Assembly: GCA_964513515.1 (NCBI GenBank)
Contig: CAZEMP010000001.1
Coordinates: 11,336-75,335, forward strand
DNA length: 64,000 bases
From: an uncultured Candidatus Saccharibacteria bacterium
GTDB taxonomy: Bacteria > Patescibacteriota > Minisyncoccia > Phycocordibacterales > GWA1-40-21
Reading direction: 5' to 3'
Shown here in pieces: positions 50,634 to 51,434 of this stretch; the first letter of the stretch is position 1, and each line of letters starts with the position of its first letter. The notes below the pieces were generated by a model. It had not been told where the DNA came from, ran no database searches, and saw nothing but the letters and a program-made list of their open reading frames with translations. Both the position numbers and the translations under genes were made by a program.

Positions 50634-50710
50634 GAGACGAGCTCCTTACAACTTTATAAAAAGTTTTAAGGAGCTCGTCTTAAAGAGCTGCACGCTAGAG
50701 CAAATCTAGC
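50634..50710 (+). promoter_or_regulatory. conserved 5' leader of gene C: long hairpin GAGACGAGCTCCTTA...TAAGGAGCTCGTCT plus box GCTAGAGCAAATCTAGC
   Basis: Paralogous leader at 51350-51434 has compensatory changes (CTCCTTA/TAAGGAG vs CTCATT/AAATGAG). Confidence 0.5.
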
Positions 50711-50730
50711 AACATCATAGGAGACTCTGA

Positions 50731-51135
50731 ATGACCACGACGTTGAACCCGAAACTCCGCAAGGCCGTCGTTCTCATCGCGACCTATCCGAACGATCAGG
50801 TCCAGACGCACCTCCGCAAGATCTACGGGATCGAGACTCCGGTCACGATCCTGCACCCATCGTCCGAGCGCTTCGCCGGCATGGGTGGCTTCTCGCGCTA
50901 CATCGGCAGCGCGGAACAGCAGGATAAGATGTTCGTCGTTCTCGGCAACGAGATCTCCGAGCAGGAGCTCGCGATCGCCCGGACCAACAAGCGGACCTTC
51001 GTCCAACTCAAGCGGAACGAAGGTCAGATCTTCAGCCGCTGGAACAACCTCGAGGGACGGGAACCTATCTTTGACGTCTGCACCAAGCAGGAGATCGAGG
51101 CGATCAGGGTCGACAAGGAACTGGCCACGACCTAA
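50731..51135 (+). CDS. hypothetical protein, paralog C (G+C-rich)
   Basis: 134 aa; homologous to D and weakly to E (motif F..LKRNEGQIFSRWNNL). Confidence 0.45.
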   Translation: MTTTLNPKLRKAVVLIATYPNDQVQTHLRKIYGIETPVTILHPSSERFAGMGGFSRYIGSAEQQDKMFVVLGNEISEQELAIARTNKRTFVQLKRNEGQIFSRWNNLEGREPIFDVCTKQEIEAIRVDKELATT

Positions 51136-51152
51136 GATCCAAGAAGTACAAC

Positions 51153-51193
51153 GGCCCCTCATCACTTGTTTAGTGATGAGGGGCCTTCTTTTT
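51153..51193 (+). terminator. terminator GGCCCCTCATCACT-TGTTT-AGTGATGAGGGGCC + T-run
   Basis: 14-bp stem after gene C. Confidence 0.6.
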
Positions 51194-51349
51194 ATTTATA
51201 ATCCAATTTTGATTACCGTATTTTTTGGAATGTAAATATTTGATTAAACTGTGTTATATTATTCTCTTGACATATTTTTTTCTTCTGCTAGAATCCTTTT
51301 CACTGTCTCAAAAAGACAAATTAGTTCTTTTCAAAATGGATTTAGGTTT

Positions 51350-51434
51350 GAGACGAGCTCATTGTAACTTTTTATAAGGTTTAAATGAGCTCGTCTTAAG
51401 TCATAGGTGAGCTGCATTGCTAGAGCAAATCTGG
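51350..51434 (+). promoter_or_regulatory. conserved 5' leader of gene D (hairpin + GCTAGAGCAAATCTGGC box)
   Basis: See 50634-50710. Confidence 0.5.

Follow-up and report, generated by a model that had tools for sequence, protein, structure and literature searches.

A conserved two-hairpin module in the leaders of two tandem orphan genes from an uncultured Candidatus Saccharibacteria bacterium

The window analysed in this work is a 64-kb stretch of chromosome (64,000 nucleotides, nt) from an uncultured Candidatus Saccharibacteria bacterium (contig CAZEMP010000001.1, positions 11,336 to 75,335), with a GC content of about 33% and genes including rpoB, rpoC, dnaG, pyrG, recR, dinB, dnaX, dus and def. 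It is matched at 99.9-100% identity by the ENA/Logan metagenome contigs L001, L009, L015, L016 and L017. Three paralogous orphan genes, here termed C, D and E, lie on the same strand, preceded by a SWIB-domain gene (50245-50502) and followed by dnaX (52500-53531, minus strand), with protein identities of 31% between C and D (E = 3e-16) and 23% between D and E. Each of the three has a strong Shine-Dalgarno sequence (SD) and an intrinsic terminator, and is predicted to be transcribed from its own near-consensus sigma-70 promoter (11/12 matches plus a TG extension). The untranslated leaders of C and D share a module of about 95 nt, composed of a long hairpin (H2) and a small one (H3), which we tentatively read as an RNase III-type processing or stability element. 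The features of the array, including a 5'-terminal stem-loop (H1) and the GC content at third codon positions (GC3), are as follows.

50554-50581, plus strand: predicted promoter of C, TTGACA, 16-nt spacer, TATTAT, TG extension; 11/12 in the consensus scan, predicted start about 50588
50588-50607, plus strand: H1 of C, 5'-terminal stem-loop CACUGU/ACAGUG, from a fold of the first 38 leader nt
50631-50684, plus strand: H2 of C, lower stem of 17-18 base pairs (bp), 1x1 internal loop, 6-bp upper stem, 4-nt loop
50694-50710, plus strand: H3 of C, box GCTAGAGCAAATCTAGC, 6-bp stem, GCAAA loop
50719-50733, plus strand: SD (AGGAGA, 50719-50724) and ATG (50731-50733) of C, read from the sequence
50731-51135, plus strand: coding sequence of C, 134 amino acids, orphan family, GC3 0.87
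51153-51185, plus strand: intrinsic terminator of C, 14 pairs and then a T-run
51267-51294, plus strand: predicted promoter of D, TTGACA, 16-nt spacer, TAGAAT, TG extension; predicted start about 51301
51304-51318, plus strand: H1 of D, 5'-terminal stem-loop UGUCU/AGACA
51345-51402, plus strand: H2 of D, about 26 pairs including G-U, 2x2 internal loop, 4-nt loop
51419-51435, plus strand: H3 of D, box GCTAGAGCAAATCTGGC, with an A-to-G change that gives a U-G wobble pair
51443-51454, plus strand: SD (GGAGA, 51443-51447) and ATG (51452-51454) of D, read from the sequence
51452-51877, plus strand: coding sequence of D, 141 amino acids, GC3 1.00, zero codons ending in A or T
51893-51924, plus strand: intrinsic terminator of D, from the terminator scan
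51961-52429, plus strand: paralog E, with promoter 51961-51988, H1 51995-52010, SD GGAGAG, TTG start at 52037 and coding sequence end at 52429

The module extends over 50623-50715 in C and 51339-51440 in D, between H1 and the SD, and aligns over about 90-98 nt, slightly beyond the coordinates that an earlier sequence-only reading of this DNA had given. H2 begins at about +45 from the predicted transcription start, within a complete 5' untranslated region of about 145-150 nt, and forms a helix of 24-28 bp; taken as an inverted repeat, H2 of C has 25-nt arms that are 92% complementary. The base of the arms reads GGTTTGAGAC / GTCTTAAA(G), and a GAGCTC palindrome is present in each arm. H3 follows after 8-17 nt, its 6-7 bp stem closed by a loop of 5 nt, and is separated from the SD by 8 nt in C and by 7 nt in D. 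The 17-nt box that had been described as a small inverted repeat just upstream of the SD indeed folds as H3 and is 16/17 identical between the two genes; its pattern, GCTAGAGCAAATCT(A/G)GC, occurs exactly twice in the 64 kb, where 0.25 occurrences would be expected even at three mismatches. The long hairpin that had been proposed is likewise real and very stable: the leaders, folded as 109 and 114 nt, reach -44.3 and -45.6 kcal/mol (z = -6.9 and -7.1), a stability equalled by 0/200 dinucleotide shuffles, and the hairpins exceed their shuffles by z = -6.9 to -8.3. Paralog E, as had also been noted, has a related promoter (81% identity over 32 nt) followed by a leader of 48 nt without H2 or the box. 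The suggestion that the element regulates the genes of the array differentially is thus plausible, given its presence in C and D and its absence from E.

Relatives of the family were obtained by a full HMMER scan with protein D over 1.84 billion representative proteins, which returned five clusters only; a profile search added only P0007. The loci recovered from these clusters were the following.

L011, ENA contig: 44% protein identity to D; module present, leader long and 86-95% identical to that of D
L012, JGI contig of 116 kb: 39% protein identity to D; module absent, leader 47-50 nt
L013, groundwater (contig name Hain_H51_01um, 0.1 um): 34% protein identity to D; module absent, leader 47-50 nt
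L014, soil: 31% protein identity to D; module absent, leader 47-50 nt

The L012 contig is syntenic with the window (SWIB, family gene, PAP2, dnaX, dus, def), and the L014 family gene also comes after a SWIB gene. The layout of promoter, 5' stem-loop, SD and terminator is the same in L012, L013 and L014 as in the window genes, and a second family locus in the L012 organism, together with its groundwater counterpart, also has no module. Because E and the genes of L012, L013 and L014 do without it, the module is a later, lineage-specific acquisition of a leader that was originally shorter. In the protein tree C falls with D and L011 at weak bootstrap values (48% and 83%), and a single gain of the module would be compatible with this weakly supported tree.

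Searches for further copies returned none. A covariance model of H2 and H3, built from the three copies, found no additional instance in either the 64-kb window or the 46 kb of related loci searched. The pattern GAGACGAGCTC-N20-40-GAGCTCGTCTT gave seven matches in GTDB representative genomes, all attributable to chance, as they lie in genomes of 57-72% GC and resemble the leader in the two pattern arms alone; neither this pattern nor GAGCTGCA-N1-3-GCTAGAGCAAATCT matched anything in IMG/VR. The box pattern, which in hindsight was too strict since L011 carries GAGCACGCA and a GCGAA loop, gave one match in JGI metagenomes, on a contig with TTAGGG-type telomere-like repeats that is probably eukaryotic, and this match too is probably a chance one. 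The D leader had no blastn match in phage and plasmid collections, and exact look-ups of the SWIB protein retrieved only contigs 100% identical to the window. The locus is systematically fragmented in metagenome assemblies: contigs from a number of independent public assemblies of this organism stop inside or beside H2 or within the C-D-E array (L017 at 50673, L016 at 50877, L015 at 51670, L001 at 51834), and the L011 contig starts at the H1 of its D-like gene. Between strains the D slot is a mosaic with conserved flanks and a hyper-divergent coding region: when L011 (1-840) is aligned with the window (51301-51992), identity is 86-95% in the leader, 63% at the nucleotide level in the D coding region (44% in protein), 82% in the downstream intergenic region and E promoter, and about 50% in the leader and coding start of the E-like gene.

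The conservation of the module stands out against both its flanks and the genes that it precedes. Between C and D, H2 is 82% identical (z = 9.0) and H3 94% (z = 5.9), and the module as a whole reaches z = 11.6 over shuffles, whereas the promoter spacer, the leader preceding H2 and the H2-H3 linker lie near shuffle expectation (z = 1.8-2.8). At four-fold degenerate sites of identical residues the third base is the same in 4/11 cases, which amounts to saturation. Between D and L011, H2 is 94.6% identical against 62.7% for the coding sequence at the nucleotide level, and 12/17 four-fold sites agree, which is nearly saturated (about 0.53 would be expected if only C or G were used). Across the 98 columns of the module, variable positions make up 10/62 of the paired and 18/36 of the unpaired columns (Fisher p = 0.0005), and 21/26 H2 pairs are invariant in the three copies. 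The alternative that the leaders belong to a recently duplicated block drifting at random does not apply here. The contrast of the module with genes and flanks supports selection, or else later copying of the module; L011 resembles C at least as closely as D does, and therefore a recent gene conversion between C and D is not indicated. As evidence, this differential conservation is stronger than covariation.

The earlier reading had gone further, holding that the stems differ by paired changes that preserve pairing, and this was overstated. Among the 33 pairs of H2 and H3 in three copies, there is one double-sided change (A-U in two copies, C-G in one), together with four one-sided, wobble-compatible changes and three non-paired cells beside the internal loop. 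A second true compensatory change, from U-A to C-G, is found in H1 (UGUCU/AGACA in D, UGUCC/GGACA in L011), outside H2 and H3. Of the claim of selection on structure, the part that stands is conservation beyond drift (82% and 94% against saturated sites); covariation does not support it.

A separate line of evidence comes from the two strands, whose folding energies compare as follows.

H2 of C: sense -33.5, antisense -29.7 kcal/mol
H2 of D: sense -32.2, antisense -20.7 kcal/mol
H2 of L011: sense -27.8, antisense -21.7 kcal/mol
H3 of D: sense -8.8, antisense -3.7 kcal/mol

The sense strand outfolds the antisense strand in all three copies, the antisense being 4-11 kcal/mol worse, because G-U pairs turn into A-C mismatches on the other strand; the four one-sided stem changes are likewise wobble-compatible in the sense RNA only. 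A sense-strand RNA structure is thus favoured over a symmetric duplex operator or a cruciform, which speaks against the symmetric form of the DNA operator that had been offered as an option, although the asymmetry does not exclude binding of a protein to the duplex. The module probably has a function at the RNA level.

Our best explanation of the module, still tentative, is processing or stabilisation by an RNase III-type mechanism. RNase III acts on leaders whose double-stranded RNA helix, continuous or coaxial, has at least about 20 bp, and H2, with 24-26 pairs, a 1x1 or 2x2 internal loop and more than two helical turns, falls in this size class in all three copies. Substrates of this size include the rnc and pnp leaders of E. 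coli, the lambda N leader and T7 R1.1. Like H2, these well-established leaders (this and the other comparisons with RNase III leaders, 5' stabilisers and Correia, ERIC and REP elements draw on established knowledge) carry a long near-perfect hairpin with a small internal loop between promoter and ribosome-binding site, lack a terminator tail and leave the SD free. They differ from the module in having no sequence or Rfam relationship to it; the module adds a second small hairpin with a conserved GNRA-like loop, and its host is an AT-rich uncultured bacterium.

The remainder of the leader fits the same scheme. All 8 family leaders, and that of the unrelated GC-rich gene A upstream in the window, have a stem-loop of 5-8 bp within about 25 nt of the predicted start: at 50588-50607, 51304-51318 and 51995-52010 and at about 48230-48243 (gene A) in the window, at about 11-25 (D-like gene) and 692-712 (downstream E-like gene) in L011, and about 10-25 nt past the -10 box in L012, L013 and L014. 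The sequences differ (CACUGU/ACAGUG, UGUCU/AGACA, UGUCC/GGACA, UUGCC/GGCAA, CUAUCUUU/AAAGAUAG, CUGUCU/GGGCAG), and since the stem-loops occur in all 8 leaders, the family already uses 5' structure. Small 5' hairpins block 5'-end-dependent decay in the E. coli ompA 5' untranslated region and in the Bacillus subtilis aprE and ermC leaders, and H1-type stem-loops look like a conserved mRNA stabiliser in this classic arrangement. H1 of every family leader fits that layout, as H3 would after a cut in H2; H2 itself is far longer than 5' protection needs and is internal (about +45). The transcript would therefore begin, as in every family member, with H1; H2 would be long enough for double-strand-specific cleavage, and a cut within it would detach H1 along with the primary 5' end. 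The new 5'-proximal protective hairpin directly before an accessible SD would now be H3, and the C and D mRNAs would differ in half-life and translation from those of E and of the relatives without the module. Both the cleavage and the stabilising role of H3, and with them any effect on expression, are what we infer from this anatomy.

Several results weigh against this explanation. Covariation is not significant, as 170/500 column shuffles reach the observed score, and the RNAalifold covariation term of +0.45 kcal/mol gives no support, so that covariation cannot serve as proof of selection on structure. The difference in variability between paired and unpaired columns loses significance when the hairpins are considered alone (p = 0.26-0.40). 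If the coding regions mutate in an accelerated, GC-biased way, synonymous saturation would be a poor clock and would overstate the age of the duplication, and the contrast between leader and gene conservation would then be weaker than apparent. Three copies of the module are known, all in one narrow lineage, and the family as a whole can dispense with it, since the relatives and paralog E do without it. The 64-kb window showed no RNase III gene or signature (ExLE[FWYL][LIVM]GD), a negative that is uninformative because the window is part of a genome.

An unlikely alternative reads the module as a small inserted palindrome, selfish or neutral, of the type of MITE, REP or Correia elements, which entered the leader of the C/D ancestor or was copied between leaders and has no regulatory role. 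Relative to the leaders of E, L012, L013 and L014, the module is indeed inserted after H1 and before the SD; its sequence is almost perfectly palindromic, its covariation is not significant, and a CATAGG-like sequence past H2 in D and L011 resembles the pre-SD sequence of C and L013, possibly a relic of insertion or duplication. Neisseria Correia elements, ERIC and REP are transcribed palindromes, some of them folding within mRNAs and serving as substrates of RNase III, and the module resembles them in its near-perfect palindrome, its insertion-like position in an older leader and its co-transcription with the downstream gene. It differs from them in that it is not dispersed in the data examined: the two leaders in the 64-kb window are homologous positions, the 46 kb of related loci held none, the GTDB, JGI and IMG/VR pattern scans gave chance matches or none, and blastn against phages and plasmids gave nothing. 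Nor can clear terminal repeats with a target-site duplication be seen, the whole of H2 being an inverted repeat with no evident flanking duplication; D and L011 have a CATAGG-like repeat on either side of H3, but it is too weak to count as one. Finally, H2 and H3 are conserved far above the adjacent leader and the saturated synonymous sites, and their substitutions favour the sense-strand fold.

It is similarly doubtful that the module is a protein-binding site, whether for a translational repressor or autoregulator on H3 and/or H2 in the RNA or for a transcription factor that occupies the inverted GAGCTC arms in the DNA as a roadblock past the promoter. A location between promoter and SD would suit such a role, each H2 arm contains the GAGCTC palindrome, the H3 loop stays GNRA-like (GCAAA, or GCGAA in L011) on a conserved stem, and sequence is conserved in H2 and H3 beyond what pairing asks for (21/26 H2 pairs invariant). 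Set against this, the arms are complementary over their full length, including an upper stem that two operator half-sites would not need, and the G-U asymmetry points to single-stranded sense RNA more than to duplex DNA. No regulator gene adjoins the array, whose neighbours are the SWIB-domain gene, a membrane protein gene and dnaX. The C, D and L011 proteins (31-44% identity) are too divergent for an obvious common RNA-binding surface, and their predicted structure model matches no known RNA-binding fold. Protein C gave no Pfam, PHROG or PADLOC match, and the family protein as such gave no sequence or structural relative, although its model is of adequate confidence (predicted local distance difference test, pLDDT, 76.6).

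The module is very improbable as a classical conditional leader, and its anatomy largely refutes this idea, for which a structured 5' untranslated region of about 145-150 nt with strong hairpins might otherwise speak. A transcription attenuator, one of the options raised earlier, was rejected: H2 is followed by AAAGAGC in C and AAGUCAU in D, there is no U-tract past H2 or H3, the terminator scan was negative over 50580-50730 and 51295-51450, and no conserved alternative (antiterminator) pairing was seen. The thermometer option fares no better, since the SD lies 7-8 nt past H3 and, like the AUG, outside both hairpins, its unpaired probability in the ensemble being 0.75 in C and 0.45 in D (45-75% unpaired, hence not consistently sequestered), and H2 is too stable (-28 to -33 kcal/mol). 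A riboswitch was rejected because the module consists of two independent simple hairpins joined by a variable linker of 8-17 nt, with no multi-helix junction, no pseudoknot pocket and no Rfam match. The scan for known riboswitch and leader families that had been suggested found none: at gathering thresholds, Rfam 15 returned only 2 tRNAs from the window, and a permissive scan of 48000-52600 (E <= 10) gave no family, H2 drawing sub-threshold matches resembling microRNA precursors (26 bits against at least 90). Translation of a leader peptide was rejected as well, as the upstream open reading frame MDLGLRRAHCNFL in the D leader has no SD and no ATG at its counterpart in C.

It is scarcely probable that the module is a DNA recombination site (an attC-like hairpin or a gene-conversion boundary) for swapping hyper-divergent coding cassettes, a role for which the cassette-like D slot (flanks 86-95% identical in the leader and 82% downstream, coding region 44% in protein) and the two module copies, direct repeats with a spacing of 716 bp between which unequal crossing-over could occur, might speak: no recombinase or integrase-like open reading frame lies in 46000-56000, the hairpin is inside a transcribed leader downstream of each gene's own promoter, and relatives without it have the same fast-evolving GC3-rich genes. 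An integron attC, likewise an imperfect inverted repeat of about 55-60 nt in a same-orientation array with cassette-like variability, was rejected because the arms do not match the R''/R' cores (RYYYAAC / GTTRRRY); the module has neither the extrahelical-base pattern nor an integrase, and each gene of the array, unlike an integron cassette, has its own promoter and terminator, with the module downstream of the promoter.

By analogy, the functionally closest systems would be RNase III-processed leaders and transcribed palindromic insertions such as Correia. The module, which we continue to regard tentatively as an RNase III-type processing or stability element, is new, yet familiar in type: a structured cis-acting leader hairpin that stands outside every curated RNA family.

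The genes downstream of the module carry an extreme base composition at third codon positions, more striking than the leader itself, and this context may matter more. The GC3-rich orphan genes of the window and its relatives are the following.

48272-48778, window, gene A: GC3 0.79
48959-49450, window, gene B: GC3 0.63
50731-51135, window, gene C: GC3 0.87
51452-51877, window, gene D: GC3 1.00 (0/141 codons ending in A or T)
52037-52429, window, gene E: GC3 0.65
157-570, L011, counterpart of D (44% identical): GC3 1.00 (0/137)
10001-10390, L012: GC3 0.88
354-761, L014: GC3 0.93
1905-2300, L013: GC3 0.74

GC3 lies at 0.15-0.27 in neighbouring genes (SWIB, dnaX, rpoC, dinB and the membrane protein), the genome has 33% GC, and the first and second codon positions of the GC3-rich orphan genes are ordinary. 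Every recovered family locus is AT-rich outside the family gene itself, and the dnaX of the L012 organism, at 87.5% protein identity, has saturated synonymous sites. High GC3 is common to related family genes in distant relatives, and because of this it looks like a maintained property of a very fast-evolving orphan family and not like the mark of a recent transfer from a high-GC donor. In a broader proposal that we hold to be quite improbable, the module together with promoter, 5' stem-loop, strong SD, GC3-saturated coding sequence and terminator would form an undescribed, self-contained expression cassette that small AT-rich bacteria use for a tiny, hyper-divergent orphan family; H2 would be a processing or recognition site of the C/D lineage, and the mRNAs, with no three consecutive A/U inside the coding part, would resist an A/U-specific ribonuclease, or else the locus would mark GC-biased diversification.

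The codon bias also affects annotation. Public gene calls place C, D and E on the antisense strand, whose frame is open because A-ending codons are lacking, and A in a wrong frame. The calls on the wrong strand are these.

L009 3159-3626, minus strand: corresponds to window 50695-51165
L009 3865-4356, minus strand: corresponds to window 51401-51892
L009 4480-4929, minus strand: corresponds to window 52016-52465

The true C and E proteins (and A) are missing from the searched collections because of these wrong calls, while D is present as P0002. Searches of a word-indexed protein database with C and with the antisense frame of D found no homologues, again because public gene calls at the locus are on the wrong strand.

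Other elements of the window and of related loci share some of these traits. The small proteins encoded by A and B, two GC3-rich genes directly upstream of the SWIB gene that have a promoter and a terminator each, are paralogous, match no family and resemble a signal peptide at the N terminus. An identical 29-nt terminator hairpin, GAGCCCCTCCGTTGCCGGAGGGGCTCTCT, stands on either side (19974-20002 and 20609-20637) of another GC-rich orphan gene (20023-20511, minus strand, 162 amino acids, GC3 0.66); this gene, too, has its own promoter, and it shows weak similarity (24%, E = 0.008) to a less GC-rich gene upstream of it (20647-21093), which suggests a tandem duplication or the insertion of a cassette along with its terminator. 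The gap between dnaX and dus (53532-54393) is a gene-poor stretch of 860 nt with two GC-rich units of short collinear similarities, each of which, if read on the minus strand, finishes with a strong hairpin of terminator type (about 53588-53625 and 54105-54140). These units, which may be unannotated small RNAs or small open reading frames, had no Rfam match at E <= 1, and blastn detected nothing similar to them in L012, whose own dnaX-dus gap contains no called gene. A second family member found in relatives (the P0007/P0005 clade; L018 3723-11533, L019 3183-7067) is surrounded by oxidative-stress-type genes, namely MsrB, MsrA, a nitroreductase, HxlR, AhpC/peroxiredoxin and DinB; in the window, dinB (46949-48187) lies directly upstream of the region from A-B to C-D-E. 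This is a possible hint of a stress-related role for the family.

Taken alone, the leader is of modest weight, a cis-acting RNA structure, new and absent from catalogues, by which paralogs in a tandem array differ. It is nonetheless a clean candidate, in an uncultured and little-studied lineage, for the way in which a long leader hairpin combined with a small SD-proximal hairpin may alter the fate of an mRNA. In practice, the codon bias of these genes leads standard gene callers to the wrong strand in public assemblies. The family genes evolve extremely fast (paralogs or alleles are 31-44% identical, whereas the dnaX of L012 reaches 87.5%), and studying the expression of these genes, including this leader, would be the most direct route to why the codon bias is maintained.

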